This document shows, one piece after another, positions 1,919 to 47,944 of a DNA stretch of 64,000 nucleotides. Each line of letters opens with the position of its first letter. Within the stretch, counting starts at the first letter, position 1. The position numbers and the translations under genes were made by a program. The notes beneath the pieces were generated by a model. That model saw only the letters and a program-made list of their open reading frames with translations. It searched no databases and was not told the DNA's origin. This stretch comes from Tolypothrix carrinoi HA7290-LM1 (GTDB lineage Bacteria > Cyanobacteriota > Cyanobacteriia > Cyanobacteriales > Nostocaceae), in the NCBI GenBank assembly GCA_019358935.1, contig JAHHIK010000029.1, forward strand, positions 1-64,000, written 5' to 3'.

Positions 1919-2143
<225 letters not shown>

Positions 2144-26400: not shown

Positions 26401-27901
26401 CTTTCGTGTTTAGTTCGCAGTAAGTTAACTGCTCATCTTTAAACACCACTGCTACTGCATTAGGTGTGCGTTCTACTTGCGCTTCAAATAATTGATGAAT
26501 GCACTGTTCTTGAGGATACTCAACTTCTGTATCATTCCATTCCAGCAGCAATTGATATTTTTCTTGTGCAGTCAGTAACGACAAATCTCGAAGTTGTTGT
26601 TCGGGATTAGCAACTATACTTTCTAGCAAAGTCTTTAAATGCCTTAATATCCGATTAATCGTCGCACTATCAAAACGACGGGTATCATACGCAATCGACA
26701 GTAATAAATCTGAACTAGGATATACCTGTAGGGTAAGAGGATAATTCGTCTTTTCAAATATCCGAGCTTCACCTATTACCATGCTTTGAGCTAGCTTTTC
26801 TTTAGTATCATCTACTAAATAGTTATTAAAAACTAGAAGACTCTCAAATAGTGGCAAGCCACGAGGAATTTGACTCCATTGTTGAATCTGTATGAGTGGA
26901 CTATACTCGTACTGACGCATTTCCACTTCTTGAATTTGAAGCTTTTTCAACCAAGGTATAAGCAAATCATCAGAAGGGACTTGTACCCGTAGCGGCAATG
27001 TGTTGGCGAAAAGTCCCATCATGGACTCTGCTTCTGCTAATTCAGTCGGTCGGCCTGAAGATGTAGCTCCAAAAACTATATCTAACTCACCACTATAGTG
27101 ACTTAAAAGTATAGCCCAGGCTCCCTTGAGTAGAATATTTAGGGTAAGGTGATACTTTCGCGTCAGGGAATTTAAGGCATCTGTCGTTGTTACCGAGAGT
27201 AAGGTTTGTTGACAATCATGGTCTTCGTCTTCGCTAGAGAAACTACCAGCAGCTTTGTCGATCATTAGTGGTGTCGGTACTGTAAATCCTCTAAGCATCT
27301 CACGCCAGTAAATTTCAGCCTTTGATATATCTTGCTGCTGTAGCCAAGAAATATATTCTTTAAAGGGACGAGGGTATTCCAGATGTAAATCCTGACCTTT
27401 ACAAAAGGCATTATAGAATTCATAAAATTCTTTCCATAGCCATGTTAAAGACCACCCTTCCATCAATATATGGTGATAGCTGAAGACAAATTGATAAGTG
27501 CTATCAGCCACCTGAATTAATGCCAGACGGATGAGTGGAACCTGGGAAAGTGTAAAGCCTTGTTTGCGATCTGCTGCTAAAAAGACTTCTAACTGCTTTT
27601 CTGTTTCCTCCAAAGACATCTGACGCCAGTCTTGAAAATCCCAAGGCAAATCTACTTGTCGATACACCACTTGATATGGCTTATCAAGATTTTCCCAGTA
27701 GAAGGAAGTACGCAAAATCGGATGCCGATCTAAAACTCGCTGCCATGCTTTCTGGAAAGCTGGAACATCAACTTGAGTTTGCAAGGCGTAGCAAAACTGC
27801 TCAAAGTACATCCCCGAATTAGGTGTAACCAGCGTGTGAAAAAGCATACCCTGCTGTAAGGGTGAAAGTTCGTATATATCTTCAATATTATTTTGGTTCA
27901 T
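23450..27901 (-). CDS. NRPS C(DCL-like)-A(Gly, interrupted by a luciferase-like monooxygenase)-PCP
   Basis: IEDIYELSPLQQG N-terminus and HHILMEG. Code is about DILQMGMIWK. LLM insert FSLFYF...WTPERHFHAFGGLYPNPSV...GVDEVACLIDFG lies between A4 and A5. PCP reads GGNSL. Confidence 0.93.
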   Translation of the reverse strand: MNQNNIEDIYELSPLQQGMLFHTLVTPNSGMYFEQFCYALQTQVDVPAFQKAWQRVLDRHPILRTSFYWENLDKPYQVVYRQVDLPWDFQDWRQMSLEETEKQLEVFLAADRKQGFTLSQVPLIRLALIQVADSTYQFVFSYHHILMEGWSLTWLWKEFYEFYNAFCKGQDLHLEYPRPFKEYISWLQQQDISKAEIYWREMLRGFTVPTPLMIDKAAGSFSSEDEDHDCQQTLLSVTTTDALNSLTRKYHLTLNILLKGAWAILLSHYSGELDIVFGATSSGRPTELAEAESMMGLFANTLPLRVQVPSDDLLIPWLKKLQIQEVEMRQYEYSPLIQIQQWSQIPRGLPLFESLLVFNNYLVDDTKEKLAQSMVIGEARIFEKTNYPLTLQVYPSSDLLLSIAYDTRRFDSATINRILRHLKTLLESIVANPEQQLRDLSLLTAQEKYQLLLEWNDTEVEYPQEQCIHQLFEAQVERTPNAVAVVFKDEQLTYCELNTKANQLAHYLRSLGVKSEVLVGICVERSLDMIIGLLAILKAGGAYVPLDPAYPQERLTFMLADAQVPILLTQQQLLEKLPNSSASLVCLNRDWQIIQSASDQNPPTAFSPDNLAYTIYTSGSTGKPKGVMVSHRNVVNFFTGMDGSIGNDHPGTWLAVTSISFDISVLELLWTLTRGFQVVINGDSRPTTFATEVDQKITDKEMAFSLFYFASDEVEAGTDKYQLLLEGAKFADKHAFAAIWTPERHFHAFGGLYPNPSVVSAAIATITERIQIRAGSIVLPLQNPIRVVEEWSVVDNLSRGRVGISFASGWHANDFVLAPEKYSDRFQIMFRDIETVRQLWRGESITLPAGSGNEVEVKIHPQPIQPEVPIWVTAAGSPETFRRAGEIGANLLTHLLDQNLEELEEKIAIYRQSWHEHGHGLGAGHVTLMIHTFVGENIDVVREKVRQPFYQYLKSSLSLLNNLGKSLGHDINAENFTAQEEEQLLNYAFNRYFETSSLLGTPSTCLRMINRLKAIGVDEVACLIDFGVDVESVLSSLHHLNTVRELSNKKTDKDDTDYSLPAQIARHNVTHLQCTPSLARILIQDNKALSAMGSLRKLMLGGEALPISLAEQLRTQLSAEIYNMYGPTETTIWSTSYPLQEVGNTIPIGRPIANTEIYILDRHLQPVPVGIPGELYIGGEGVVRGYLNQPELTIERFISNPFGTNPNNKLYKTGDLAHYLPNGNIEFLGRVDHQVKFQGYRIELSEIETILSQHPGIVEAVVVAREEQPGDKRLVAYVVPTQQKEGTLHSQVTPAEKTRLLADEIIANKPTLSIGDLRAFIKERLPEYMVPSTFVMLNALPLTPNGKIDRNALPAPEASRPELEVSYVAPKTEVEKVIASIWQELLQVERVGIHDNFFELGGNSLLLIQVPSKLQKVFQRDFTLVEMFQYPTISHLVKYFSQESSEETSVLRPAHHSESRTASVQRRKQVRKERRTATKQQDF

Positions 27902-27918: not shown

Positions 27919-30900
27919 TCACTGACCAATCTGAGCCAGCAAGTTACTCAAATTTTCTTGATTTATGTTTGCTGCCGAAAAGTCTGAAGGGGTATACTCT
28001 GCTACTTCTAGAGAGCGACAGTGGGTGATAAGAGACTGGAGTGCTTCGACAAAACTATGAGATAGTTTCTCTATAGTTTCGCGTCGATGCACATTTGTGC
28101 TATAGCCAAATTCCAGTCTTAACTGACCTTCTTCATTAACCCATGCAGTCACGCCTAGCAAATGAGGACTAGTTCCTTTTGTACTGTACATTGCTCCAGT
28201 AGATTCTTCAGTTGGTCTGAGCATAGATTGATCAAATCTTCTACCAAACTGACCAAGGTAGAGAAAAAATACCTCTGCTTGAGGAAATGACCGAATTTTC
28301 TCTGTAAGTGTTGTATCCTCGCTCAGGTAGCGTAGTACTCCATGATCAATGGTTCTACTAGAAATGTCACGAAACTGCTCTTTAACGGCTTTCAATGCAT
28401 CCCCTGGATTCTCAGCCCCCTCTAAATCCAACAGCACAGGATAAAGAGTAGTCAGCCAACCTACTGTCCGTGATACATTCACATTATCTATAGTGGTATT
28501 TGCGTCTCGTGCATCTTCTTCGGTATTAAACAGTAGCCATTTTATGCCTGTCCATTGTTTAAAAGCTTGTACAAGAGCAGTCAGCAGAACTTCTTGTGTA
28601 TTAGTTCGATAAACTGCTAGAACCTCCTGAAGTAATGCCTGAGTTTCTGTTTCGGTTAACGCTACTGAGACACTTTGATCTGATGTTACGGTGTTAATGC
28701 CTCCAGAATAATCGATTGGTAAGTGATAAACCTGTTTGTAACGTTCGTTTAGGCAGGAATTTAGCCTTTTCTGCATCTTTTCAGAGTGAGCGTATTCCTT
28801 TAGTCGTTCAGACCACTGCTTGAAAGAGGTTGTTTTCTCCGGCAGTTGAATGGCTTTACCTTGGTTAAGCTGTTGATAAGCAGTCTCAAGATCCTCTAGT
28901 AAGATTCGCCAAGAGCCGAAATCTACTGCCAAGTGGTGGATGATAATGAGCAAGCGGCTTGACTTGTTGACACCCAGATTAAAAAGCACACCCCGTACAA
29001 TTGGCCCCTCTGACAGGTTCAAGCTAGCTTGTAGTTCCGTGGCGGTTGCTTCCATAGAACATTTTTGAACTTCAGGTGAAAACGCTGATAAATCTGTATA
29101 TATCAAATTCACCTGATTTTCCAAGCCAGTATTTACCTGCTGCCAGCCAGATTCAGAGGGGATAAACCGAAGGCGAAGTGCATCGTGATGTATGAATAAA
29201 TGCAGCCATGCCTGTTCAAACAAAGCTGGATCGAGAACTTGCATTACCTCTACAAAGAATGCCATGTTCCAGTGGTGTGGTTCTGATAAATTCTGTTCAA
29301 AGAACCAGTGCTGGATAGGTGTAAGAGCAAGCGAACCAGTTACTAAACCTTGCTCAGCCTGGACAACTTGCTTTGTACTTGTCACCTCTGCCAGTTCGGC
29401 AATTGTCTGATGTTCAAACAATTGCTGAGGGGCAAGTCGATAACCTGCTTTAGCAGCTCTGGCACTAACTTGAATGCCAAGGACGGAATCTCCCCCTAAC
29501 TCAAAAAAGTTATCGTGAATCCCTACTTGCTCAATACCAAGGAGCTCTTGCCAAATATTGGCAATGGTTTGCTCTACCTCACTTGTAGGAGCAATATAGG
29601 CATTATCTAAATTAGGTCTTAAATAAAGTGAAGCGGAACTGGCTTTTTGTGCAAGTTGAGAACCTTGACTAAATTCAAGTTTAATCCATCTTTTGATACT
29701 AGTTTGTAAATCTACCGTTGATGTTACTACTTGGGTAAATTTATTTAGAGATAAAGCACGTTTAAAAACCTCCAGTCCTTCTTGCCTTGTCATCATCGAA
29801 TCCGCACCTTTGGGTAAGGTTACTGATTCGGAGGATTTTTGAGTAATCCAATCACCATAATTGATACTCTGCCAGGGAACAAGGCTTGTTTGGTTATGTT
29901 TATGTACAAAAGCATCAGTGAATAGGTGCGCTGCTGGATAAGCAGCCATCCCCATTACCCCCAAAATAGATGCTAATGAGGATATTACTACACAAAAATC
30001 AAGCTCTTTTCCTTGTAGGATATTTTCTAAGACAAATAATCCATAGCCTGTTGAGCTTAATTGACTTTCACACTCAGTTTTACTTATCTGTTGAACAGTG
30101 CTAAACAACTTTATCCCTGCTGCATGGATTACACCATGAACGTGACCAAAGCGGTTTGATGCTTGAGTCATTACTGCTTGCATTTGTTCGAGATTAGCAA
30201 CATCGGCGCGGCAAATTAGAACTTCAGCACCCAAGGCTTCTAATGCTTGCACTTTCTGGATTTTGCGACTGATATCATCGTTCTCATCATGAGTTGCCAA
30301 CCATTGAGACCAATCTTGTTTTAAGGGAAAACTGGAACGCCGTGTAAGAATTAGCTTGGCACGCGCTGTTTGGGCTAGATATTCTGCCAGTACCAAGCCA
30401 ACATCTCCTAGACCACCAGCAATTAAGTATACTCCCCCTTCCTTGATGGGAATTGCTTCCTCATCTGGCTCCTGAAGTTGTATTGGTTCAAAAGTTTGCA
30501 CCCATCGGTGCTTTCCACGGTAGGCAACCATGTTCTCTGATGCCTTGTGGGTGAGTTCTGCTAAGAGTTGATCTATCAGTTGATTTTCTTGGGGTGTCCC
30601 TGATTCAGGAATGACTACATCAATATTACGACAGGTGATATTGGGATACTCTTGGGGAATCACCTTACAGATTCCCATGACAGTCGCCTTTTCCGGGCAT
30701 AACTTTTCGTCGCCGTTTACTTCTTGTACATTGTTGGTAACAACTAGAATTTGAATAGTATCGGTAACTTCTTGTCTTCCCAACGCTTGTGCTAGGAAAA
30801 GTAGACTATAAAAACCATTATTTTGACATTCCTCAAAGAACTGATGAGGTAATTCTCCCTCTACGTTGGGGATGAGACTCCAAAAATGGCTGATGGCATT

Positions 30901-33900
30901 AGGGTTTAAATCCAATGAATCAAGTTCTTTCAGCAAAGCATCATAGTCACTACTTGTTTGTGGATTTATTGCGTAAGAGCGATCGCCCAGTTGGCTAAAC
31001 TGCTTTCCAACAGTCACAGTAATGACATCATGCCCCTGTAATTCCAACTGTTTGCCAATTTCTGAACCAATTTTAAGAGTATCAATAAACACTAAATAAC
31101 ATAACTTTTGTGCTGGTTTTGCTGCTATATGCCCAGAGCGTTTCCAGGAGGGGATATAAAACCAGTCAGCAATATCCGGTTTTTTCTGTAATGCTTGCGG
31201 CGATCGCGTTGCCAAATTAGCTTCAGGGTTGGCATCAATCCAGTAACGCTGACGTTCAAAAGGATACGTCGGTAAGGGGATGCGACCGCGTTGTTCATTG
31301 GCATAAAAACCAGACCAATGTACTTCTACCCCTTCCAGCCAAAGGCGACCCAATGTAGTCATTAAAAATGCAACATCTGACTGTTGCTCGTAGGAATGCC
31401 TCAGGGAGGGGAGCATCACCGATTTAGCTCTATCGTCACTTTCTAGACATTGTGATGCGAAACTAATTAATGCTTGACCTGGACCAACCTCTAATAAAAT
31501 CGGATTGTCTTTTTGCCACAACTGTTGCACTCCCGAAGCAAAGCGTACTGCTTGACAGAGGTGCTTAACCCAATAACTGGGATCTGTTGCTTGCTCTACT
31601 GTAATCCAGGTTCCGGTGACGTTAGAAACATAGGGAATTTTCGGGGGTTTAAGGCTAAATGTTTTGACTAAATCGCCAAAGGCTGGTGCGATCGCCTCCA
31701 TCATCACAGAATGAAAAGCATGAGAAGTCTGCAAACGCTTACCGACTAAATTTTGCTCGCTTAATTGTTGTTCCCATTCTTCCACAGCATCTGTGGCACC
31801 TGCAATCACACACAACGATGAACCGTTGATTGCAGACATGGAGATTTTCTCATTCAAGAGGGGCTGTATCTCTTCCTCTGAAAGCGGAACTGCCAGCATT
31901 GCCCCTTCAGGCAACTCTTGAATCATTTGCGCTCTTTTAGCTACCAGGGTTAAAGCATCTTCCAGAGACAAAACCTCGGCTAGAGTTGCTGCTACATATT
32001 CACCGATGCTGTAGCCAATCATCGCCGCAGGACGAATTCCCCACGATATCCACAACTGAGCTAAAGCATATTCAATGACAAATATAGCAGGTTGCGAGAG
32101 AAAGGTTTGATTCAGTAGAGACGTTGCACGCAAAGTTTCTACATCCGCTTGTTCCTCCCCACGACCTAACATTTTTCGCAAATCTAGCCCAGGTGAGAGA
32201 GTATTTTGTTTTTGCTTGCTGCCATTCTCACTGTTTCTATTCGGATACAAAACATCTCGCAAATCCAGACCAAGTTCGGGTTTGAGGAGTTCGCAGCATT
32301 GGTCAACTGAGGCGCGAAATGTTGGCTCAGTTTGGTAAAGCTCAAGAGCCATATCAATGTAGTGAGTTCCCAGTCCAGAGAACATGAAGGCAACAGGGCG
32401 TTGCTTAGTTTTCTGAGTACTGGTGATAACTCGCTTTGGTTCTTGAAGTGCCTTGACAGCATCTTGGATATCTCGGCAGACAACCGTGCGCCGATAGTCG
32501 AAAGCTCTTCGCCCAACCTGCAATGTGTAAGCCGCATCGGCAAGGTTTAAATCGGGATGTTCTCGGAAATAATTAGCTAAATTTGTTGTAGCCGTTTCCA
32601 GCGCTGAACTGGTTTTAGCGGATAGCATCAACAACTGCCAAGGGCGAGAATGTAGAGACGCAGTTGCGGTCTCTACAACCGGGGCTTCTTCGAGAACTAC
32701 ATGGGCATTGGTTCCCCCTAATCCAAAGGAACTAACTCCCGCACGTCGGGGAGTGCCATTACTTTGCCACTCGGCAAGTTTGGTATTGACGTAGAAAGGA
32801 CTGTTGGCAAAGTCAATTTCGGGATTAGGCGAAGAATAGTGTAAGCTCGGAGGTATTTGTTTGTGCTTGAGGGCTAAGACGGTTTTGATTAATCCCGCCA
32901 CACCAGCTGCTGTGTCCAAATGTCCAATGTTGGTTTTGACGGAACCAATGGCGCAGAAGCCTTTCTTTTGGGTACTTGCCCCAAAAGCTTGTGTCAGGGC
33001 GGCAATTTCAATGGGATCTCCTAAAGCTGTTCCTGTTCCGTGAGTCTCAATGTAAGTAATACTCTCAGGCTCTACCTCAGCTACTAATTGGGCTGTTCTA
33101 ATTGCCTTTGCTTGAGTGTCGATGCGGGGTGCGGTATAGCTGACCTTGAATGAACCATCATTATTGATAGCTGAACCTTTGATTACAGCATGAATGCGAT
33201 CGCGATGCAAGAGAGCATCTTCTAATCGCTTTAACACTACAATGCCTACACCCTCGCCCCCCACAGAACCCTGTGCATTAGCATCAAATGCACGGCAGTG
33301 TCCGTCAGGAGACACTATTCCTCCTTCTGTATACAAATATCCAGATTTTCTTTCCGCACTTATGGCAACGCCACCAGCTAAAGCGATATCACATTCACCA
33401 TTCAGCAAGCTTTGGCAAGCTAAGTGAACAGCAACTAATGAAGTTGAGCAGGCAGTTTGCACAGCATAACTTGGACCTTCTAGGTTCAGTTTATAAGAGA
33501 CACGGGTGGTTAAAAAGTCTTTATTAGCGGCTATTGTCAGTTGCTGAGGATCAATAGAATTTACAACATTTTGATTTAGGTAAACATTTAGTAAGTAGCT
33601 GCTTAAACTAGATCCACCATAAACACCAATAGCACCTTTATAATTGTGTGAATCATATCCAGTACTTTCCAGAGCTGACCAAGCACACTCTAGAAAAATC
33701 CGATGTTGCGGATCAGTGATTTCTGCTTCTCTGGGATTAAAGCCAAAGAATGAAGCATCAAATAATTCTGCGTCTTCTAATATACCATGTGCTTTTACAT
33801 AGTTAGGGTCATTTAATATGGATAAACTTATACCTGATGATAATAATTCTTCATCACTGAAAAAAGATATTGATTCTACTCCATTTTGAAGATTTTTCCA

Positions 33901-33999
33901 GAATTCATCAATATTTTTTGCTCCAGCAAATCGCCCTGTTAAGCCTATAATTGCTATTTCTGAACCATTTAGAGAATTTGATGCTGTGGTAATACTCAT
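27919..33999 (-). CDS. PKS KS-AT-KR*-ACP with a C-terminal epimerization-type domain
   Basis: KS TACSTS; AT GYSIG and HAFH; carrier GGDSV; then TPIQHWFF, HHLAVDFGSW, SRTVGWLT, FLYLGQF and YTPSDF. Confidence 0.92.
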   Translation of the reverse strand: MSITTASNSLNGSEIAIIGLTGRFAGAKNIDEFWKNLQNGVESISFFSDEELLSSGISLSILNDPNYVKAHGILEDAELFDASFFGFNPREAEITDPQHRIFLECAWSALESTGYDSHNYKGAIGVYGGSSLSSYLLNVYLNQNVVNSIDPQQLTIAANKDFLTTRVSYKLNLEGPSYAVQTACSTSLVAVHLACQSLLNGECDIALAGGVAISAERKSGYLYTEGGIVSPDGHCRAFDANAQGSVGGEGVGIVVLKRLEDALLHRDRIHAVIKGSAINNDGSFKVSYTAPRIDTQAKAIRTAQLVAEVEPESITYIETHGTGTALGDPIEIAALTQAFGASTQKKGFCAIGSVKTNIGHLDTAAGVAGLIKTVLALKHKQIPPSLHYSSPNPEIDFANSPFYVNTKLAEWQSNGTPRRAGVSSFGLGGTNAHVVLEEAPVVETATASLHSRPWQLLMLSAKTSSALETATTNLANYFREHPDLNLADAAYTLQVGRRAFDYRRTVVCRDIQDAVKALQEPKRVITSTQKTKQRPVAFMFSGLGTHYIDMALELYQTEPTFRASVDQCCELLKPELGLDLRDVLYPNRNSENGSKQKQNTLSPGLDLRKMLGRGEEQADVETLRATSLLNQTFLSQPAIFVIEYALAQLWISWGIRPAAMIGYSIGEYVAATLAEVLSLEDALTLVAKRAQMIQELPEGAMLAVPLSEEEIQPLLNEKISMSAINGSSLCVIAGATDAVEEWEQQLSEQNLVGKRLQTSHAFHSVMMEAIAPAFGDLVKTFSLKPPKIPYVSNVTGTWITVEQATDPSYWVKHLCQAVRFASGVQQLWQKDNPILLEVGPGQALISFASQCLESDDRAKSVMLPSLRHSYEQQSDVAFLMTTLGRLWLEGVEVHWSGFYANEQRGRIPLPTYPFERQRYWIDANPEANLATRSPQALQKKPDIADWFYIPSWKRSGHIAAKPAQKLCYLVFIDTLKIGSEIGKQLELQGHDVITVTVGKQFSQLGDRSYAINPQTSSDYDALLKELDSLDLNPNAISHFWSLIPNVEGELPHQFFEECQNNGFYSLLFLAQALGRQEVTDTIQILVVTNNVQEVNGDEKLCPEKATVMGICKVIPQEYPNITCRNIDVVIPESGTPQENQLIDQLLAELTHKASENMVAYRGKHRWVQTFEPIQLQEPDEEAIPIKEGGVYLIAGGLGDVGLVLAEYLAQTARAKLILTRRSSFPLKQDWSQWLATHDENDDISRKIQKVQALEALGAEVLICRADVANLEQMQAVMTQASNRFGHVHGVIHAAGIKLFSTVQQISKTECESQLSSTGYGLFVLENILQGKELDFCVVISSLASILGVMGMAAYPAAHLFTDAFVHKHNQTSLVPWQSINYGDWITQKSSESVTLPKGADSMMTRQEGLEVFKRALSLNKFTQVVTSTVDLQTSIKRWIKLEFSQGSQLAQKASSASLYLRPNLDNAYIAPTSEVEQTIANIWQELLGIEQVGIHDNFFELGGDSVLGIQVSARAAKAGYRLAPQQLFEHQTIAELAEVTSTKQVVQAEQGLVTGSLALTPIQHWFFEQNLSEPHHWNMAFFVEVMQVLDPALFEQAWLHLFIHHDALRLRFIPSESGWQQVNTGLENQVNLIYTDLSAFSPEVQKCSMEATATELQASLNLSEGPIVRGVLFNLGVNKSSRLLIIIHHLAVDFGSWRILLEDLETAYQQLNQGKAIQLPEKTTSFKQWSERLKEYAHSEKMQKRLNSCLNERYKQVYHLPIDYSGGINTVTSDQSVSVALTETETQALLQEVLAVYRTNTQEVLLTALVQAFKQWTGIKWLLFNTEEDARDANTTIDNVNVSRTVGWLTTLYPVLLDLEGAENPGDALKAVKEQFRDISSRTIDHGVLRYLSEDTTLTEKIRSFPQAEVFFLYLGQFGRRFDQSMLRPTEESTGAMYSTKGTSPHLLGVTAWVNEEGQLRLEFGYSTNVHRRETIEKLSHSFVEALQSLITHCRSLEVAEYTPSDFSAANINQENLSNLLAQIGQ
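32115..32142. repeat. Palindromic small dispersed repeat, in frame in the AT domain
   Basis: GTAGAGACGTTGCACGCAAAGTTTCTAC encodes VETLRATSL; it is absent at the equivalent site of the paralogous AT (~52860-52890). Confidence 0.6.
32651..32677. repeat. Palindromic small dispersed repeat, in frame in the KS-AT linker
   Basis: TGTAGAGAC-gcagttgcg-GTCTCTACA, a perfect 9-bp IR. Confidence 0.65.
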
Positions 34000-34118: not shown

Positions 34119-37100
34119 TTAATTATAAGTATTTTCAATAGATTTAATTTTTTGCAGACGTTTTCTTTGTTGAGCTTTTCCATCTGCAATTTTCTCCCTC
34201 ACATTAACCATAATATCAGAAGATGGCTGTTTATTTTTTAAGTGATTAAGATAATTTGCTAAGGAGTTTATAGTCGGATATCTAAATAGATCGAGGACAG
34301 ATAAATCCTTCTTCAATATTTCACGTAATTTACCATGAACTTGAACCAAGAATAATGAATGACCACCAAGTTCAAAAAAGTTATCATGAATTCCTACCTC
34401 TTCAACTTGAAGTAATTTCTGCCAAATATCAGCAATAGTTTTTTCTACCTCAGTTTGGGGTGGCTGATAAACTACTTCCAATTCTGGACGTACTGTATCA
34501 GGTGCAGGTAGTGCCTTACGGTCAACCTTACCATTGGGTGTTAGTGGTAGTGCCTCTAATGTGACAAAAGCTGCTGGCATCATGTAGTTCGGCAACTTTG
34601 ACTCTAAAAAACTACGTAGTTCAGAAATTGTTAGTGTTTGCTCTTTTTGAGGAACTACATAAGCAACTATTCGTTGAGAGTCTGCTGAACCTTCGCTGAC
34701 TATAACTACAGTTTCTCGCACTACTGGGTATTGGCTGATTACTGCCTCTATTTCTCCCAGTTCAATCCGGAAACCACGTATCTTGACTTGGTGGTCAATC
34801 CGACCTAAATATTCAATGTCTCCATTCGGCAGATAGCGGGCTAAATCACCAGATTTATAAAGGCGTGCGCTTGGTTTGTCACTAAAGGGATTAGAAATAA
34901 ATCTTTGGGCTGTTAGTTCTGGTCGGTTTAAATAACCCCGTACCACACCAGCACCACCAATATACATTTCACCTGGTACTGCAATAGGTACTGGCTGCCC
35001 ATAGCTATCTAGTAAGTAAACTTGCAAGTCAGGAATTGGACGACCAATAACACTTGCTGGTGCTACTTCTAAGTCTGCTATTTTTAGCGGACGATATGTG
35101 ACATGCACGGTCGTTTCCGTAATACCGTACATATTGACTAACTGTGGTGACTCGTCGCCATGACGCTCAAACCAAGGTCTTAAACTCTCAAGTTGCAACG
35201 CTTCTCCACCAAAAATTACTTTTCGCAGGCTTAAGTTGTTACTATTTCCCAGCGATTTCTCTACCTGCATCAGTTGACGGAAAGCGGAAGGTGTCTGGTT
35301 AAGTATCGTTACTTGCTGTGTTAATAGTAATTTATAAAAGTCTTCAGGTGAACGACTCAGCCAGTACGGTACTACTATCAATCGTCCACCATAAAGTAAG
35401 GCACCCCAGATTTCCCAAACGGAAAAATCAAAGGCTATAGAATGGAATAGTGTCCATACATCCTGTTGGTTAAAGTTATACCAGAATTCAGTTGTTGCCA
35501 ACAGACGAACTACATTGCTGTGATTGACTAAGACACCCTTGGGTTGACCTGTTGAGCCAGAGGTGTAGATAATATAAGCTAGGTTATCAGTTGTACATTC
35601 ACTAATTGGATTTTGTAAGCTTTGTTGAGCTATACTTTCCCAATTCGTGTCTAGACAAACAACGCTAATCTGATTTTTCGGTAAATTCTCTATCAGGTGC
35701 TGCTGTGTTAGTAATACTGACACCTGAGCATCTTGCAATATGAAAGCTAAACGTTCTGGTGGATACGCCGGGTCTAAGGGTACATATGCACCACCTGCTT
35801 TGAGGATGGCTAATAGTCCGATGACCATTAAGAGCGATCGCTCTACACAAATCCCTACCAATACCTCTGGTTTTACACCCAGCGAGCGCAAATAATGCGC
35901 CAATTGGTTAGCTTTTGCGTTCAGTTCCCCATAGGTTAGCTGTTTATCTTCAAATACTACTGCTACTGCATCAGGCGTTTTTTCTACCTGCGCTTCAAAC
36001 AACTGATGGATACATAGCTGTTGAGAATATTCAACTTCTGTATTATTCCACTCCCGCAGCAATTGATGCTGCTCAGATTTCGTCAACAGTGGTAACTCCG
36101 ACAAACGCTGCTGTGGATTAGCAACAATTCCTTCAAGCAACGTTTGCAAATGACCCGCCATTCTTTGTATAGAACTTTCCTCAAATAAATCAGTATTGTA
36201 TTCTAAACTTCCAACTAGCCCCTCCTCTATTTCTGTCATAGATAGGGTTAAATCAAACTGGGCAGTACCACTATCGCTTTCCAAGGGAGTTAAAGTCAAA
36301 CCAGGCAACTCTAAAACAGATATTGGTGCATTCTGAAGCACAAACATCACTTGAAATAGTGGTGTATGACTTAAGTCCCGCTGTGGTTGCAGTTGCTCAA
36401 CTAACAACTCAAAGGGCAAATCTTGATATGCATAAGCCCCTAGTGCTACTTCACGCACTCGTTTTAGTAGCTCTTCAAAGCTGGGATTTCCTGCCAAGTT
36501 AGTTCTCAATACCAGGGTATTGACAAAAAGTCCAATTAATCCTTCTATTTCCGCCCGGTTGCGGTTAGCGATCGGCGAACCGACCACAATATCTTCGCTA
36601 CCCGTATAACGCCCTAGCAGTGTTTGGAAACCTGCTAACAGGGTCATAAATAAAGTACTTCCCTGCTGCTGGCTTAATTTATTTAGGGCTGCGGATAATT
36701 CCGGAGATAACTTAAATGAGTAGGTCGCACCTCGGAAAGTCTGAATCGTCGGTCTTGGGTGGTCTGTGGGTAACTCTAATACTTTTGGTGCGTTCTCTAA
36801 ATGCTTAAGCCAATAAGATTTCTGAGTTTTGAGTACTTCTCCTTGTAACCATTGTCGTTGCCAAGCAGCGAAGTCTACATATTGTATTGGCAGTGCAGGC
36901 AACGATGAAGGTTGCTCATTACAGAAGGCTTGATAAAGTTTTGCCAACTCTTGCACTAGTACCCCGATTGACCAACCGTCAGAGACGATATGGTGCATTG
37001 TCAGTAGTATTATGTGTTCTTGTTCACCAAGACGTAATAGTTTTACTCTCAGTAGATGGTCGCTGCTGATGTCAAAGGGTTGTTGTGCATCTTGTGCAGC

Positions 37101-40100
37101 CTGTTGTTTAATTTCGGCTTCTTGTTGATTTGTAGGTAGTTCGCTAATATCGAATATTGACAACGTTAGGGGCTTTTCTTTCGAGATGACAGCTACTGCT
37201 TGCCCTTCTCTTGTTTGAAAATTGGTTCTCAACGCTTCATGGCGGCTGATAATTTCGTTAAAACTTTGTTGTAATGCTTCTACATTCAATTGTCCTTGTA
37301 GGCGAACAGCAGCAGGAATATTGTAGAATGGGCTGTCTGGTTCTAATTGAGCTAGGAACCATAATCGTTGTTGAGCAAATGATAGGGGTAATTCTGGCGA
37401 TCGCGCAATCCGCTCAATATTCGTCGCTTCAACTCCTGAATCTACCTTAATCGCTTTTTCAATTTCTTTTGCTAGCCCTGCTATTGTTGGTTTTTCAAAT
37501 AAATAACGTAAAGGAAGCTCTACTTGAAATACTTGCCGTATTTGGGACATTACGCGAGTGGCGATTAAGGAATGTCCTCCCAATTCAAAGAAATTATTAT
37601 CAATACCTACTTTATCTATACCGAGTACTTCTGCCCAAACACCCGCTAATAAATTCTCAATTGGTGTGGAAGGAGGGGTAATATTTGATGATGATACTTG
37701 TGTTAATTCGGGTGCAGGCAGCGCTTTGCGATCAAGCTTACCATTAGGCGTGAGCGGTAGTGCCTCCAATGTGACAAAAGCTGCTGGCACCATGTAGTTT
37801 GGCAACTTTGATTCTAAAAAGCTACGTAGTTCAGTGATTACCAGTGTTTGCTCTTTTTGAGCAACTACATAAGCGATTATTCGTTGAGAATTTGCTGAAT
37901 CTTCGCTGATTATAACTACAGTTTCTCGCACTGCTGGGTATTGGCTGATGAGTGTTTCGATTTCTCCCAGTTCAATCCGGAAACCACGGAGTTTCACTTG
38001 GTTATCAATCCGACCAATGTATTCTATCTCTCCATTCGGCAAATAACCGGCTAAATCTCCTGTTTTGTACAGACGTGCTGATTTATTACTAAAGGGATTG
38101 GGTATAAATTTTTCTGCTGTCAAATCAGGACGATGGAAATAGCCTCTTGCAAGTCCTTCCCCGCCGATACACAATTCGCCTGCTACACCCACAGGAACTA
38201 ACTGGTTATATTGGTCGAGGATATAAAGCTGCGTGTTTGCAATTGGGGAACTAATTGGTACGGTGTTGTTAACAGTTTGTACCAGCCTAGCGGCTGACCA
38301 AATGGTGGTTTCGGTGGGACCGTACATATTCCATAAAGAATCGCATCGGTCGAGTAACTGATTTGCTAGGTGTCTGGGTAAAGCTTCGCCACCACAGAGA
38401 ATTTTTAATTGATGATCTCCATCCCAACCTGCTGCCAAAAGTAGCTGCCATGTCGCTGGTGTGGCTTGCATGACCGTAGCTTTGGAGTCAGTTAGTTTTG
38501 CTGACAACTGTGTTCCGTCTGAGACAATTTCCCGGCTGGCGACTACCAAGCGAGCACCTACTATGATTGGCAGGAACAGTTCTAATGCCGCAATATCAAA
38601 GGAATAAGTAGTGACTGCTAGCAAGGTGTCTTCCTCAGTTAACCTTGGGGCTTGTCTCATGGAGTACAAAAAGTTGCTCAGAGCAATGTGGGGAATTTGC
38701 ACGCCTTTTGGTTTGCCTGTGGAACCAGAGGTATAGATGACATAAGCTAGGTTGTCAGCGGTTAGCTCAGAGAATAAATTTTCCTGGCTTTGTTGAGCTA
38801 TCAGATGCCAATCAGTATTTAAACAAACTACTTTAGCTTTGTGTTGCGGCATTGCCTCCAAAAGCGACGCTTGAGTTAGCAACACTGGCGCTTGTGAATC
38901 TTCTAGTATATAAGCTATGCGTTCTTGAGGATAGCTAGGGTCTAACGGTACATATGCACCACCTGCTTTGAGGATGGCTAATAACCCGATGACCATTAAG
39001 AGCGATCGCTCTACACAAATCCCTACCAATACCTCTGATTTTACACCCAGCGAGCGCAAGTAGTGTGCCAATTGGTTGGCTCTGGCATTTAGTTCCCAAT
39101 AGGTTAGCTGTTCATCTTCAAATACTACGGCTACTGCATCAGGCGTTCTTTCTACCTGCGTTTCAAATAATTCATGGATACATTTATCTTGCGGATACTC
39201 AACCTGAGTCTGATTCCACTCCACAAGTAACTGATGTCGCTCATGTTCTGTCAAGAGCGACAACTCACCAAGACGTTGCTGCTGATTGGTAGCCATGCCC
39301 TCTAGCAAAGTCTGCAAATGTCCTAGCATCCGTTTGATAGTGTCAGTATCGAAGCGATCGCTATCATCGCAACTAATCTTGAGCAACAACTCGTCACCTG
39401 GAATCACGATTAGGGTTATAGGATAGTTAGTCTTTTCAAAGCCATGAAAATCCTCTATCTCCAAATTTATATCCCTCTGCCGTACAGAAGCATCTATAGT
39501 ATAGTTCTCAAAAACTACTATACTCTCAAACAGAGATAAATCTTTAGGAACTTCGCTCCATCCTTGGACTTTCACTAACGGACAATACTCGTATTGACGT
39601 GCCTCAACTAGTTGATCTTTGATTTTCTCAAGCCAAGGCAAAAGAAATTCTTCGGGTGATACTTGTACTCTAATCGGCAGTGTGTTGATAAACAGCCCTA
39701 CCATAGACTCGGCTTTAGCTAAAGTAGAAGGACGACCAGAAGTTACTGCCCCAAAAACTACGTCCTCCTGACCACTGTAGCAACTTAATAGCAAAGCCCA
39801 AGCTCCCTGTACTAGGGTATTTAGCGTTAACTGGTGTTGCTTTGCTACAGATTGCAATGCTGCTGTTGTTACTACAGAAAGCTTTACTTCTCCCTCGTCA
39901 TAGTCATCCGTTTGAGTCAGTAATTTTCTAGCTCCTTGATTCACCGATAGCTGTGTCGGAGTGGTAAAACCTTTAAGCATCTGTCGCCAGAAAGTCTCAG
40001 CTTCAGATAGGTTTTGTTGCTGTAGCCAGACAATGTAATCTCGATACGGGCGAATTGATTCTAAGTATAAGTCTTGACCATTGCTGAAAGCTTTGTAACA

Positions 40101-40589
40101 AGCAAGGACTTCCTTAAAAACTAAGGCAACAGACCACCCATCTAGCAACAGATGATGATGACTCCAGGTAAAGTTATAGGAAATGTCAGAAAGTTGAACC
40201 AGTGTTAAGCGCATCAATGGTGCTTGCTTAAGTTCAAAGCCACTAGAGCGATCGCTTTGCAAAAAAAGTTCTAACTTTTGTTGTTGTTCTTCTGGGGAGA
40301 GATGCTGCCAATTATACTCCTGCCACGGTAAGGTTACCTGTCGATGCACAATTTGTACTGGTTCTTTTAAGCCTTCCCAAACAAAGCAGGTTCGTAGAAT
40401 TGAATGTCGTTCTACAATATGCTGCCATGCGCGATGAAACGCTGTAACGTTGAGCTTTCCTTGAAGAGTCCAACTAAATTGTTCAAAATAGACACCAGAT
40501 TTAGGAGCTGCAAGACTGTGGAACAGAATGCCCTGCTGCATGGGCGAGAGGGGATAAAAATCTTCTATGTTTTTGTTTTTCACACCCAT
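34119..40589 (-). CDS. Bimodular NRPS C(DCL)-A(Gly)-PCP-C(LCL)-A(Thr)-PCP
   Basis: Codes are about DILQLGMIWK (Gly) and DFWNIGMVHK (Thr). HHLLLDG and HHIVSDG; two GGHS PCPs. Confidence 0.95.
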   Translation of the reverse strand: MGVKNKNIEDFYPLSPMQQGILFHSLAAPKSGVYFEQFSWTLQGKLNVTAFHRAWQHIVERHSILRTCFVWEGLKEPVQIVHRQVTLPWQEYNWQHLSPEEQQQKLELFLQSDRSSGFELKQAPLMRLTLVQLSDISYNFTWSHHHLLLDGWSVALVFKEVLACYKAFSNGQDLYLESIRPYRDYIVWLQQQNLSEAETFWRQMLKGFTTPTQLSVNQGARKLLTQTDDYDEGEVKLSVVTTAALQSVAKQHQLTLNTLVQGAWALLLSCYSGQEDVVFGAVTSGRPSTLAKAESMVGLFINTLPIRVQVSPEEFLLPWLEKIKDQLVEARQYEYCPLVKVQGWSEVPKDLSLFESIVVFENYTIDASVRQRDINLEIEDFHGFEKTNYPITLIVIPGDELLLKISCDDSDRFDTDTIKRMLGHLQTLLEGMATNQQQRLGELSLLTEHERHQLLVEWNQTQVEYPQDKCIHELFETQVERTPDAVAVVFEDEQLTYWELNARANQLAHYLRSLGVKSEVLVGICVERSLLMVIGLLAILKAGGAYVPLDPSYPQERIAYILEDSQAPVLLTQASLLEAMPQHKAKVVCLNTDWHLIAQQSQENLFSELTADNLAYVIYTSGSTGKPKGVQIPHIALSNFLYSMRQAPRLTEEDTLLAVTTYSFDIAALELFLPIIVGARLVVASREIVSDGTQLSAKLTDSKATVMQATPATWQLLLAAGWDGDHQLKILCGGEALPRHLANQLLDRCDSLWNMYGPTETTIWSAARLVQTVNNTVPISSPIANTQLYILDQYNQLVPVGVAGELCIGGEGLARGYFHRPDLTAEKFIPNPFSNKSARLYKTGDLAGYLPNGEIEYIGRIDNQVKLRGFRIELGEIETLISQYPAVRETVVIISEDSANSQRIIAYVVAQKEQTLVITELRSFLESKLPNYMVPAAFVTLEALPLTPNGKLDRKALPAPELTQVSSSNITPPSTPIENLLAGVWAEVLGIDKVGIDNNFFELGGHSLIATRVMSQIRQVFQVELPLRYLFEKPTIAGLAKEIEKAIKVDSGVEATNIERIARSPELPLSFAQQRLWFLAQLEPDSPFYNIPAAVRLQGQLNVEALQQSFNEIISRHEALRTNFQTREGQAVAVISKEKPLTLSIFDISELPTNQQEAEIKQQAAQDAQQPFDISSDHLLRVKLLRLGEQEHIILLTMHHIVSDGWSIGVLVQELAKLYQAFCNEQPSSLPALPIQYVDFAAWQRQWLQGEVLKTQKSYWLKHLENAPKVLELPTDHPRPTIQTFRGATYSFKLSPELSAALNKLSQQQGSTLFMTLLAGFQTLLGRYTGSEDIVVGSPIANRNRAEIEGLIGLFVNTLVLRTNLAGNPSFEELLKRVREVALGAYAYQDLPFELLVEQLQPQRDLSHTPLFQVMFVLQNAPISVLELPGLTLTPLESDSGTAQFDLTLSMTEIEEGLVGSLEYNTDLFEESSIQRMAGHLQTLLEGIVANPQQRLSELPLLTKSEQHQLLREWNNTEVEYSQQLCIHQLFEAQVEKTPDAVAVVFEDKQLTYGELNAKANQLAHYLRSLGVKPEVLVGICVERSLLMVIGLLAILKAGGAYVPLDPAYPPERLAFILQDAQVSVLLTQQHLIENLPKNQISVVCLDTNWESIAQQSLQNPISECTTDNLAYIIYTSGSTGQPKGVLVNHSNVVRLLATTEFWYNFNQQDVWTLFHSIAFDFSVWEIWGALLYGGRLIVVPYWLSRSPEDFYKLLLTQQVTILNQTPSAFRQLMQVEKSLGNSNNLSLRKVIFGGEALQLESLRPWFERHGDESPQLVNMYGITETTVHVTYRPLKIADLEVAPASVIGRPIPDLQVYLLDSYGQPVPIAVPGEMYIGGAGVVRGYLNRPELTAQRFISNPFSDKPSARLYKSGDLARYLPNGDIEYLGRIDHQVKIRGFRIELGEIEAVISQYPVVRETVVIVSEGSADSQRIVAYVVPQKEQTLTISELRSFLESKLPNYMMPAAFVTLEALPLTPNGKVDRKALPAPDTVRPELEVVYQPPQTEVEKTIADIWQKLLQVEEVGIHDNFFELGGHSLFLVQVHGKLREILKKDLSVLDLFRYPTINSLANYLNHLKNKQPSSDIMVNVREKIADGKAQQRKRLQKIKSIENTYN
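34540..36000. repeat. Near-identical duplicated Thr A domain, copy 1 (copy 2 at ~42344-43804)
   Basis: The two copies match at an offset of 7804 bp; about 34558-35855 appears identical by eye. Confidence 0.9.
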
Positions 40590-40590
40590 G

Positions 40591-43500
40591 TCAGATATCT
40601 CCTATAGCTGCTGTAATGGCATCGAGATCGGTTTGATCCCATTGGCTTTGCTGAAAATTTGCAAAGTCGGAAGGGGTAAAGCCTCCCGCATCGGGAGATT
40701 GGCAATGAGCAATAAGCGATCGCAGTGTCTCAATAAACTTTTGAGCAAGTACTTCAATCGTGGTGTGCCGATGCAACTTATTGCTGTAAGTCCAGCTCAT
40801 TTCCAGATGTCCCTGATAAATACCACCGTTAATTTCCAGTAAGTGAGTTCGTTTACTTCGCAAACTACGAGTGGAACCACTCGACCCTTGCACTAAGCTA
40901 AACAAAGATGATTCTGGTAAAACTTGATCGAACTGTCCTAAATAGTTGAAAGCAACTTCAGCCTTTGACGAGGAAAATTGTTCGGCTATTTGCTTGTCCT
41001 GACTAAGATAGCGCAGTAATCCATAGCCAATACCTCGATTTGGAATTGCTCGTAGCTGCTCTTTAATCGACTTCAAGGCTTTTCCTGGATCGTTGGCATT
41101 TTCAAGATTTAGGTGTACTGGGAAAATAGTTGTGAACCAACCCACAGTCCTCGATAAGTCCACATCCTCGAAGATTTCTTCTCGCCCATGCCCTTCCAAG
41201 TCAATTAGTAGAGAATTTTCTCCCGTCCACTGGTTAAACGTTAATATAAGTGCTGTTAACAATACATCATTAATTTGTGTCCGGTAAGCTGCTGGTACTT
41301 GTTGCAGCAAACTTTGGGTTTCTTCTGCGGACAGCGATATTGATACAATAGAAGCGGTTTCTTCTATATTATTTCTACCAGGAAAATCTCTTGGTATAGG
41401 CGAAACCGATTGATATTGTGTTGTATGCCAGAAGTCTAGCTCTGAAAGTAGTGCTGAAGATTGTGCATATTTTTGTAGACGGCTAGACCATTGTTTGTAA
41501 GAAGTTGTTTTGGGTGGCAACTTTATTGCTTTGCTCTGAATAATTTGCTGGTAAGCTGTTTGAAAATCTTCAATTAAAATTCGCCAAGAGACACCATCAA
41601 CAGCTAAGTGGTGAATAATCCAAAGCAAGCGGTTGGCTTGATTGTCGCCCAAGTTGAAAAGCGCAACCCGCAATAACGGTCCTTGTGATAGATTTAAGCT
41701 GGCTTGCAGTTTAGTTGCTGCTGCTTCTATTGCTGCCGATTGTCGATCTTTTGGCAGTACTGAAAAATCGAAGCATGTCAGTGGTATTACATCATCAGGA
41801 CTAACGATAAGTGCTTGAGTACTAAATTCCTCCTGTATAAATCGTAAACGTAGGACATCATGATGTTTTTGTAGAGACTCTATGATTTTCTCTAAGACTA
41901 CAGGGTCAATGTTCTGCTTGCTTTCTAAGAATACAGCCTGATTCCAGTGGTGTGCTTCTGGTTGCTTTTGTTCAAAAAACCATTGCTGAATGGGTATTAG
42001 CTCTAGCGCTCCAGTTAACACTCCTTGTTCAGCTTGAACTTTCTGAGTTGTACCAATTACTGTCGCTAATTGGGCAATAGTTTGGTACTGAAACATTTGC
42101 TTAGGAGTTAGGTGCAGCCCTGCTTGGTTGACTTTGGATATTACTTGAAGGCTAAGAATAGAATCTCCACCTAATCTAAAAAAGTTATCGTTTATACCTA
42201 TATTTTCCAGACCTAATACTTCTGCCCATATAACAGCCAACTGCTTTTCAACGGTCGTCTGTGGTGCAATAAAGGTTTCTTCCAATTCAGGTCTTACTGT
42301 ATCAGATGCAGGCAGCGCTTTGCGATCAAGCTTACCATTGGATGTTAGTGGTAGTGCCTCCAATGTGACAAAAGCTGCTGGCATCATGTAGTTCGGCAAC
42401 TTTGACTCTAAAAAACTACGTAGTTCAGAAATTGTTAGTGTTTGCTCTTTTTGAGGAACTACATAAGCAACTATTCGTTGAGAGTCTGCTGAACCTTCGC
42501 TGACTATAACTACAGTTTCTCGCACTACTGGGTATTGGCTGATTACTGCCTCTATTTCTCCCAGTTCAATCCGGAAACCACGTATCTTGACTTGGTGGTC
42601 AATCCGACCTAAATATTCAATGTCTCCATTCGGCAGATAGCGGGCTAAATCACCAGATTTATAAAGGCGTGCGCTTGGTTTGTCACTAAAGGGATTAGAA
42701 ATAAATCTTTGGGCTGTTAGTTCTGGTCGGTTTAAATAACCCCGTACCACACCAGCACCACCAATATACATTTCACCTGGTACTGCAATAGGTACTGGCT
42801 GCCCATAGCTATCTAGTAAGTAAACTTGCAAGTCAGGAATTGGACGACCAATAACACTTGCTGGTGCTACTTCTAAGTCTGCTATTTTTAGCGGACGATA
42901 TGTGACATGCACGGTCGTTTCCGTAATACCGTACATATTGACTAACTGTGGTGACTCGTCGCCATGACGCTCAAACCAAGGTCTTAAACTCTCAAGTTGC
43001 AACGCTTCTCCACCAAAAATTACTTTTCGCAGGCTTAAGTTGTTACTATTTCCCAGCGATTTCTCTACCTGCATCAGTTGACGGAAAGCGGAAGGTGTCT
43101 GGTTAAGTATCGTTACTTGCTGTGTTAATAGTAATTTATAAAAGTCTTCAGGTGAACGACTCAGCCAGTACGGTACTACTATCAATCGTCCACCATAAAG
43201 TAAGGCACCCCAGATTTCCCAAACGGAAAAATCAAAGGCTATAGAATGGAATAGTGTCCATACATCCTGTTGGTTAAAGTTATACCAGAATTCAGTTGTT
43301 GCCAACAGACGAACTACATTGCTGTGATTGACTAAGACACCCTTGGGTTGACCTGTTGAGCCAGAGGTGTAGATAATATAAGCTAGGTTATCAGTTGTAC
43401 ATTCACTAATTGGATTTTGTAAGCTTTGTTGAGCTATACTTTCCCAATTCGTGTCTAGACAAACAACGCTAATCTGATTTTTCGGTAAATTCTCTATCAG

Positions 43501-45339: not shown

Positions 45340-45381
45340 AATATTAGTCTTATAATTTATCAATATTTTATTAATAAACAA

Positions 45382-46452
45382 TTAATCAATTACTTGAAAA
45401 TTTACATACGAAGGTATAGGTTGAATTCGAGTTAAATCATTTTCAAAAACAACTGAATTTCCATTATTTTCAATTTCTTTAAAGCCAGCAAATTTATAAG
45501 ATATATACATCATTCTATTGCGATTGTTTGGTACAAACTCTGCCAAAAGGCGAACATTATTGCTTTGAGACAAATTCATAACATGATTCATCATAATTGT
45601 CCCGACTCCCCTCGACATAACGCGACAAGACATTAGTAAAAGCTTGATTGTCCATGATTTAGACTGGCATTCAATCAGAACTAAACCTATTTTTCCATAG
45701 CTTCCATACTTATCTTCCAGATTTGCAATCAGCAGTTTATGATTTTCTGATTGACGAAAATGATTGAGTTCGTCATAGGAGTACGTATAACCAGTTGTGT
45801 TCAATTGGTTGGTTCGTAACGTTAATTCTTCTGCACGCTGCAAATCTTCTTCTTTTGCAGAGGATATTGTGAAATTCATGTTGAGAGTAGCTAAGAATTC
45901 ATCTGTTGTGCCTACAAATTCTTTCTCTACATTTTGACGCTCTATATCATTAATATACATCAATCTTCTAATTCGTGAATCTTCCGTAACAAAACGGGGA
46001 TTCATGACTGCCATATCTAAAATATCTCCTATATCATCTGCGTTGATACAGAGAATTTCTGGCAGGGTAAATTTTACTTCTTCTAGTTCAAATAATTGAT
46101 CATCAACAAAAGCGATCGCATCCAGACCAATATTCAGTAACTTAGCAATTTCTTTCAGAGAAGTAGCTTTAGAGTTCCAATTTATTTGTGGATATAAAAA
46201 ATATTCTGTTAAACCAAATTCATCTAGTTTGGCTATTGCTGTAGCACGTTCGTTCTTACTAGCTATAGATTGTAGGATACCACGATTATCTAAAGTATGA
46301 ATAAGATTTACTATATTTTCTCGCCGATAAACTTTCTCATCTTCCAGCAAAACTCCGTGCCATAGGGTATTATCTAGATCCCAAACGACACATTTAATAA
46401 CTTTTTTGTCTTTTTGTTTGCTATTTATGTCTTGCTCTTTAGTACTAATCAT
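45382..46452 (-). CDS. fkbH: FkbH-like glyceryl-ACP synthase (HAD-IIIC)
   Basis: KCVVWDLDNTLW, SIASKN, RTNQLN and LLMSCRVMSRG motifs. Confidence 0.92.
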   Translation of the reverse strand: MISTKEQDINSKQKDKKVIKCVVWDLDNTLWHGVLLEDEKVYRRENIVNLIHTLDNRGILQSIASKNERATAIAKLDEFGLTEYFLYPQINWNSKATSLKEIAKLLNIGLDAIAFVDDQLFELEEVKFTLPEILCINADDIGDILDMAVMNPRFVTEDSRIRRLMYINDIERQNVEKEFVGTTDEFLATLNMNFTISSAKEEDLQRAEELTLRTNQLNTTGYTYSYDELNHFRQSENHKLLIANLEDKYGSYGKIGLVLIECQSKSWTIKLLLMSCRVMSRGVGTIMMNHVMNLSQSNNVRLLAEFVPNNRNRMMYISYKFAGFKEIENNGNSVVFENDLTRIQPIPSYVNFQVID

Positions 46453-46455
46453 ATC

Positions 46456-47640: not shown

Positions 47641-47677
47641 AATACCATTTATGCCACGTAAAATGGCAATTTATATT

Positions 47678-47929: not shown

Positions 47930-47944
47930 TAGTCTTGATTATTC

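Follow-up and report, generated by a model that had tools for sequence, protein, structure and literature searches.

What does an epimerization (E) domain of the NRPS kind do at the end of a PKS module? The question is raised by one gene in the window analysed here (the whole stretch of 64,000 nucleotides from Tolypothrix carrinoi HA7290-LM1), which is occupied by one minus-strand NRPS/PKS cluster. To our knowledge, E domains act on amino-acid thioesters only. In the 2026-aa product of this gene, Pfam places KS (residues 14-388), AT (538-884), KR (1189-1384), PP-binding (1477-1538) and Condensation (1555-2011) domains in succession. This order, together with the GGDS motif at Ser1505, bears out the preliminary description of the locus, which had KS-AT-KR-ACP(GGDS) followed by an E-like domain, and the motifs that it gave for the latter, HHLAVDFGSW (residues 1688-1697) and EEDARD, are present as stated. 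It overlooked the replacement of the Asn at GrsA position 975 by Leu in the E-type domain and the absence of the catalytic Lys and Asn from the KR of the same module. We refer to the PKS-fused E-type domain as the fused E domain and to the KR of its module as the atypical KR.

The PKS gene and its cluster

27919..33999, minus strand: cis-AT PKS gene, KS-AT-atypical KR-ACP-fused E, 2026 aa (ORF and Pfam)
32680..33960, minus strand: KS with active site TACSTS (Pfam, motif)
31348..32388, minus strand: AT with GYSIG (32002-32016), hydroxymalonyl-ACP type (motif)
29848..30435, minus strand: atypical KR, Lys to Thr and Asn to His, with GGxGxxG, Ser and Tyr intact
29380..29571, minus strand: carrier domain with GGDS (29485-29496; Ser1505) (motif)
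27922..29361, minus strand: fused E domain, residues 1547-2026 (TIGR01720, PDB matches, Foldseek, GrsA alignment)
28915..28938, minus strand: HHLAVDFG of the fused E domain, F-G in place of the canonical G-V/I (GrsA alignment)
28504..28527, minus strand: NTEEDARD (residues 1825-1832) of the fused E domain (GrsA alignment)
28249..28269, minus strand: FFLYLGQ of the fused E domain (GrsA alignment)
27922-27993, minus strand: TPSDF/COM-like C-terminal tail of the fused E domain (sequence)
26537..27901, minus strand: DCL-type C domain of the next subunit (C-A(Gly, embedded monooxygenase)-T), HHILMEG at 27455-27475
34119..40589, minus strand: upstream NRPS, C(DCL)-A(Gly code)-T-C-A(Thr code)-T, without a terminal E domain
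40594..42036, minus strand: canonical E paralogue (HHLAVDGVSW, EGHGRE, FNYLGQ), the in-cluster control
45382..48799, minus strand: hydroxymalonyl-ACP cassette
45382-46452, in the cassette: FkbH
46456-47640, in the cassette: acyl-CoA dehydrogenase
47678-47929, in the cassette: ACP
47945-48799, in the cassette: 3-hydroxyacyl dehydrogenase
48870..54728, minus strand: second GYSIG module, KS-AT-MT-KR(canonical)-ACP without E, then an LCL-type C domain; a contrast to the first

Pfam annotated no DH domain in the module that carries the fused E domain. The carrier of this module, with a dN/dS of 0.04, finds its best BLOSUM score within the cluster in the PCP before the canonical E domain (221; runner-up 206). 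Between the stop codon of the fused E domain and the start of the next C domain there are only 18 nt. The earlier assignment of this C domain as DCL-like, on the basis of HHILMEG, is supported by its 52% identity to the C domain that follows the canonical E domain of the cluster and by the mapping of both to the post-E region of the PRK05691 model. HHILMEG was also considered as the motif of the fuscachelin structure and rejected, as the fuscachelin motif is HHxxxDE in the accessible text of that paper (PMC8097023).

The likely extender is hydroxymalonyl-ACP, because the GYSIG AT resembles ZmaA-AT, a GYS-type hydroxymalonyl AT (PMC4207774, accessible part), and because the cluster holds a cassette of FkbH, ACP and two dehydrogenases. 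There is no Ser-activating stand-alone A domain, and the pairing of GYS AT and cassette recurs in five related clusters; the RxR/MxW AT motifs were not diagnostic. The extender may instead be methoxymalonyl, an MT being present at 11448-12218. The A-domain codes, set against specificity tables, probably read Thr-Gly-Thr upstream of the PKS gene and Gly downstream. As it lacks a terminal E domain, the upstream NRPS would be expected to hand over a chain ending in L-Thr. The two Thr A domains (34119-45381, minus strand) are nearly identical, which suggests a recent duplication or gene conversion.

The product of the cluster is probably a lipopeptide siderophore, since a receptor and a binding protein lie divergently just beyond the window, the receptor matching an ORF that Pfam calls an AMIN-TonB receptor, since such a receptor lies at most 10 kb away in 7 of the 12 closest relatives, and since an annotated relative sits within a full siderophore-transport locus. 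As no known chelator pathway is evident in the cluster, the hydroxymalonyl diols may be iron ligands.

Several other features of the cluster are of note in themselves. In the FAAL-ACP-C-A-T protein (57096-63599, minus strand), the A domain, with an Arg/Lys-like code, is interrupted by a PRMT5-like methyltransferase, and comparable interrupted A domains precede the PKS with the fused E domain at four other loci (L014, L049, L053, L064). The KR of the last PKS module (12264-16892, minus strand) is degenerate (PGGLESIE, with Gln where Lys is expected), so that a ketone is probably left. The Gly A domain behind the fused E domain (23450-27901, minus strand) has a luciferase-like monooxygenase embedded mid-line; in relatives, plain Gly, Ser, Thr or Ala modules stand behind the same DCL domain instead. 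Tailoring genes at 1003-7175, 21662-23404 and 54793-57082 encode two SDRs, a MATE protein, a sucrase/ferredoxin-like protein, a P450, a PanP aspartate decarboxylase before a beta-Ala module, an Asp/Arg-hydroxylase-family enzyme and a glycosyltransferase.

E-type identity and relatives of the fused domain

The fused E domain is E-type by sequence and fold. It scores 116 bits against TIGR01720 (cut-off 74), and the 10 best of the 18 matches in a PDB sequence search are E-domain-containing chains (E <= 8e-72), the next match following at 2e-10. An alignment-based AlphaFold model (pLDDT 81), compared by Foldseek, gives a TMq of 0.80-0.85 with solved E domains (PvdL, TycA, TycB3, GrsA) versus 0.64-0.71 with C domains. 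The domain shares 47% identity with the canonical E domain of the cluster and nests among cyanobacterial NRPS E domains in the tree. The possibility that it would classify as an ordinary C domain, raised in the preliminary description, is thus countered by the PDB E-values and by its motif, HHLAVDF and not HHxxxDG.

In the alignment to GrsA, H1689 corresponds to H753, D1693 to D757, E1827 to E892, R1831 to R896 and Y1914 to Y976, while L1913 stands at N975 (FLYLGQ). Of these GrsA positions, N975, R896 and Y976 are presumably ones with assigned roles in E domains. His753 and Glu892 form the acid/base pair of E domains (PMC8905534, accessible part), and the first Glu of EEDARD (E1827) is the one aligned to Glu892, as anticipated by the earlier claim that the catalytic Glu is retained. 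The GGDS carrier ahead and the DCL-type C domain behind are those of an NRPS E domain. The FNYLG core motif of NRPS E domains is FLYLG here, and KS-AT-KR-ACP takes the place of A-PCP; because of these two departures, in the N975 motif and in the substrate expected of an A-PCP setting, we file the domain as an E-domain variant and not as a plain member. Dead C/E-like scaffolds (X and interface domains) are defined by loss of the catalytic His motif. That His is present in all 64 members of the clade of PKS-fused E domains described below. Such scaffolds also recruit trans-acting oxygenases; a TauD gene accompanies many relatives of the fused E domain, and none adjoins the PKS gene in the window.

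The order KR-carrier-E was found in 30 of the 120 homologues listed and in 47 rows from 104 loci, carriers including Nostoc sp. NIES-3756 and Chlorogloeopsis fritschii PCC 6912. Removal of identical sequences left 66 fused and 251 NRPS E domains. All but two of the 66 fall into a single clade, of 64 members, that includes no NRPS E domain (FastTree support 0.994, 178 rows; 100/99 on a 14-member subset). The 64 are distinct cyanobacterial PKS-fused E domains, but they are kin and not independent samples, so that counts over them overstate the evidence. The two outside the clade are visibly decayed (P0035, with LLGHGRS/QGHGRQ, and L057, with His to Tyr). P0035, from Herpetosiphonaceae, belongs with P0175, P0212 and P0259 to a separate group of PKS modules, at the end of which two to four degenerate E-like domains follow one another.

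Over a clade tree length of 7.6, all 64 members keep His, Asp and Arg and 63 keep Tyr, and position 892 is Glu in 59 and Asp in 5. The signatures of the clade are Leu for N975 (62 of 64), Gly for V759 (55 of 64) and the loss of His894; Pro stands at position 758 in 14 of 64, and Asn remains at 975 in 1 of the 66 fused domains versus 241 of the 251 NRPS E domains. The dN/dS of the fused E domain (0.26, 12 pairs with the window gene) is close to that of canonical E domains (0.24, 33 pairs). These residues, (near-)invariant across 64 relatives, and a constraint equal to that of canonical E domains speak against the 'degenerate relic' of the preliminary description, which in the sense of decay is not supported. 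The fused E domain is a real, conserved and apparently unstudied variant of a known domain, likely with a new substrate class.

Similar modules occur elsewhere. Among 228 further long proteins a KR precedes an E-like domain in 14, of which 2 are not PKS modules, 3 are decayed multi-E proteins, 1 is a duplicate of L016 and 8 are metagenomic PKS-E proteins of the order C-A-T-KS-AT(GHS)-KR-T-E, in which His and Glu are kept and N975 is replaced where readable. One of 59 metagenome loci yielded a further PKS-E protein (L155). In the best tree these other PKS-E domains stand apart from the cyanobacterial ones, and their base composition differs, but a single origin of the two is not rejected (p-AU 0.44); the module in other bacteria is perhaps convergent.

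The partners of the fused E domain are also altered. In the window KR, Thr replaces Lys (STGYGL, 30037-30054) and His replaces Asn (YPAAH, 29926-29943), whereas reductase-active KRs all have Tyr, Ser, Lys and Asn (PMC5331325, accessible part). Across the 64 fused modules, Thr or Asn stands in for Lys in 57 and His or Tyr for Asn in 59, a canonical K/S/Y/N set being left in 5; other KRs are canonical in 14 of 15 cases, with Lys replaced in 1 of 15. The YxxxH form recurs in 7 metagenomic proteins and in L155. Redox-inactive C2-type KRs are marked by an incomplete Tyr/Ser/Lys/Asn tetrad together with a damaged NADPH site, whereas the KR here has Lys and Asn replaced with GGxGxxG, Ser and Tyr intact, and is under purifying selection; because the NADPH motif, Ser and Tyr stay, we infer that it is altered but active. 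The succession K/N, K/H, N-or-T/H resembles a compensatory exchange of residues that brings the site closer to the classical SDR arrangement. In the downstream DCL domain, Glu stands for Asp (HHxxxE) in 17 of 43 cases after a fused E domain and in none of 148 readable cases after an NRPS E domain (11 unreadable).

The ATs of the clade comprise 31 of GYS type and 27 of GHS/HAFH (malonyl) type, the remaining 6 lying outside the available fragment. Malonyl-type ATs thus occur in 27 of 58 typed members and on all deep branches, and the GYS (hydroxymalonyl) members nest within the GHS members; median dN/dS is 0.20 within the hydroxymalonyl lineage and 0.16 within the malonyl one. A dedicated TauD-family dioxygenase gene lies directly upstream in 18 of the 23 GHS loci with upstream context, for example at 4417-5295 of the malonyl-type locus L032, and in 0 of 12 GYS loci (four GHS loci and eight short loci were dropped from this count; the query locus L032 is included). 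Its presence does not depend on the upstream residue, which is Ser, Asn, Arg-like or, in two cases that both have the gene, Gly. Four TauD orthologues (at least 65% identity) were found among 401 genomes, all adjoining a gene for PKS with a fused E domain (two confirmed, two by coordinates). No TauD lies beside the PKS gene in the window, and none is adjacent at the basal members G032 and G090 or at L155; it is missing from 5 of the 23 malonyl loci, and in two of the genomes concerned the thresholds used gave no match to either TauD or FkbH. Nostoc sp. NIES-3756 exemplifies the malonyl type with TauD, and Calothrix sp. NIES-4105 the carriers without TauD.

Readings of its function

Our leading reading, to which we give a probability of roughly 0.35, is that the fused E domain is still catalytic and inverts C4 at the beta-keto stage, C4 being what was the alpha-carbon of the preceding L-amino acid (Thr, by prediction). 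A PKS module would have acquired an NRPS epimerase together with the carrier and docking tail that belong to it. The KS would join hydroxymalonyl to the L-Thr-terminated peptide, and the ACP would bring the 4-acylamino-3-oxo thioester to the fused E domain, where the ketone would sit in the oxyanion hole while the His/Glu pair takes a proton from C4 and gives it back. Reduction by the altered KR, in which Thr replaces Lys and His replaces Asn, might then be slower or confined to the D-epimer, and the 4-acylamino-2,3-dihydroxy unit would move via the E/COM-DCL junction to the Gly module. At the same level of tentativeness, KS-AT-KR(YxxxH)-ACP-E(N to L) would be a type of module not described so far, whose epimerase inverts the gamma-carbon before a co-adapted KR fixes the configuration, and which may serve as a dedicated route to D-configured statine-type units in many cyanobacterial siderophore clusters.

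This choice was made because C4 inversion is the catalytic reading with the fewest exceptions, which are also the shallowest. A chiral residue stands upstream in 28 of the 30 loci with a readable code, in 8 of 8 non-cyanobacterial proteins (Ile/Leu/Val/Asn-type codes) and in L155, and the upstream NRPS ends in an E domain in 0 of 31 loci. The coupling of the fused E domain to the atypical KR would be expected if the former acts before reduction. Against C4 inversion, two members (L035 and L067), which nest among Ser members and both have TauD beside them, have Gly upstream and thus no C4 stereocentre, yet their motifs are intact, and 5 of 64 members have a canonical KR. On chemical reasoning, moreover, the catalytic pair would act two carbons off its normal position, and in a beta-keto thioester the proton at C2 is much more acidic than the one at C4.

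The preliminary description proposed instead epimerisation of the C2 carbinol of a hydroxymalonyl-derived unit. The hydroxymalonyl extender makes this possible for the window gene, and C2 stereochemistry of hydroxymalonyl units is described as an open question (PMC4207774, accessible part), but as a general explanation the proposal fails. The hydroxymalonyl-derived carbinol cannot be the ancestral substrate, because GYS members nest inside GHS ones, nor can its epimerisation be a family-wide role, because nearly half the typed members and the deep branches are malonyl-type and without such a stereocentre. In a broader form, the fused E domain would invert the 2-OH centre after reduction, treating an alpha-hydroxy thioester like an amino acid, the source of the 2-OH being hydroxymalonyl in the window cluster and, in the malonyl-type relatives, possibly TauD as a hydroxylase acting in trans. 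This would use the normal catalytic register, and it draws on the TauD genes directly upstream at most malonyl-type but no GYS loci and on the location of all four close orthologues. It also draws on the C domains, the GYS module without E in the cluster feeding an LCL-type domain, as does ZmaA (GYS, no E), and the one with the fused E domain a DCL-type domain; DCL pairing goes with any E domain, however, and is not independent evidence. The malonyl loci and basal members without TauD count against it, and the substrate of TauD may differ (a fatty acid, for example), because homologues at 52-54% adjoin hydroxymalonyl modules that need no hydroxylase. We consider C2 inversion unlikely whichever source supplies the 2-OH. 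Still less probable, in our view, is that the fused E domain stands in for the missing DH by deprotonating C2 and expelling the 3-OH, so that a malonyl unit would end as a vinylogous amino acid and a hydroxymalonyl unit as a 2-oxo acid, or that it acts as an isomerase on a 2-hydroxy-3-oxo unit if the KR is redox-inactive. Dehydration would fit all members, including those with Gly and malonyl, it would account for the lack of an annotated DH, Leu for Asn975 would suit an apolar C2, and C-superfamily domains have been repurposed for dehydration. Canonical E domains, however, process beta-hydroxy Ser and Thr without elimination, the siderophore context favours retention of the hydroxyl, and a dead KR is at odds with the selective maintenance of GGxGxxG, Ser and Tyr.

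Second to C4 inversion and slightly ahead of C2 inversion in our estimate, though still unlikely, is a role of the fused E domain as a non-catalytic adaptor, the whole carrier-E-COM // DCL junction having been borrowed from an NRPS with the E domain kept for folding, docking or gating only. Such a role covers every member without exception, be it one with Gly upstream, a malonyl AT or a canonical KR, and it agrees with the PCP(E)-like carrier, the loss of N975 (65 of 66 fused versus 10 of 251 NRPS E domains), the Pro at position 758, the stronger motif drift of the hydroxymalonyl lineage and the co-variation of the partner C domain towards HHxxxE. It leaves unexplained the invariant His753, Arg896 and acidic residue 892 (64 of 64), the His and Glu kept in 8 of 8 distant metagenomic proteins and the overall constraint equal to that of canonical E domains; PKS-fused E-like domains that have decayed do exist (P0035, L057), and they look different.

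If the fused E domain works on the ketide-extended chain, at C4 or at C2, this would be a new reaction for the condensation-domain superfamily, and stereochemical predictions would have to be revised for many probable siderophores of cyanobacteria, which make up a large family not yet described. The ACP-E // DCL junction could serve as a portable part for PKS-to-NRPS engineering, and the ACP-E di-domain is small enough for direct exchange assays.

Comparison with known systems

The closest likeness is to GrsA-E, TycA-E, TycB3-E and PvdL-E2 (PDB 5isw, 2xhg, 6ta8 and 9lcp), with which the fused E domain shares its fold (TMq 0.80-0.85) and 34-36% identity. The His/Glu pair, the GGDS carrier ahead, the C-terminal TPSDF tail and the DCL-type partner are those of NRPS E domains. 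Unlike them, it follows KS-AT-KR-ACP and not A-PCP, for which reason its substrate should not be an aminoacyl or peptidyl alpha-amino thioester, and its clade has Leu for N975, xG for GV, Asn or Asp for His894 and a coupled atypical KR.

Zwittermicin ZmaA (KS-AT(GYSFG)-KR-ACP-C) likewise has a GYS-type AT and passes a hydroxymalonyl-derived 2,3-diol unit to a C domain (PMC4207774, accessible part), whereas its terminal domain is an LCL-type C domain (HHIVTDG) and its KR has the canonical Lys, Tyr and Asn. ZmaA and a Brevibacillus look-alike were rejected as precedents because of their terminal LCL domain. Epimerising KRs (A2/B2 types, redox-inactive C2 type, DEBS/PIKS KR3) also invert a centre at the beta-keto stage in a PKS module, using Tyr and Ser (PMC5331325, accessible part), but C2 is the centre on which they act, and they do so unaided by a further domain, whereas the module here has a separate E-family domain and a KR that keeps its NADPH motif. 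Paenilamicin was set aside as a precedent because the accessible text of its paper names E only on NRPS modules (PMC4234257).

At the didemnin Ile-to-isostatine junction (Tistrella pTM3), C-A(Ile code)-T is followed by KS-KR-T, giving a statine-type unit as proposed here, with no E domain on either module and a canonical KR; it was therefore rejected as an architectural precedent. The didemnin product is reportedly 4R at the Ile-PKS unit. With no E domain at that junction, C4 inversion there appears chemically feasible, which by analogy also implies, against a C4 role for the fused E domain, that such inversion could occur without any E domain.

Galica 2021 is said to have surveyed cyanochelin-like clusters. 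PKS-fused E domains go unmentioned in the accessible parts of PMC12628792, 10.64898/2026.07.24.740629, 10.64898/2026.07.30.741596, PMC11877528, PMC13122642, PMC12971057, PMC13324335 and PMC13235161, and full-text searches, which covered running text, returned no paper on them, so that the architecture may well have been depicted earlier in a figure. Cyanochelin B holds a 2,3-dihydroxy ketide unit (PMC12628792, accessible part), and many of the relatives with a fused E domain encode SyrP-like beta-hydroxylases. Although an Asp module is absent from the window cluster, and hydroxymalonyl takes the place of an oxidase domain there, it shares with the cyanochelin-type lipopeptide siderophore clusters the FAAL start, the PKS/NRPS hybrid line and the adjoining AMIN-TonB receptor.
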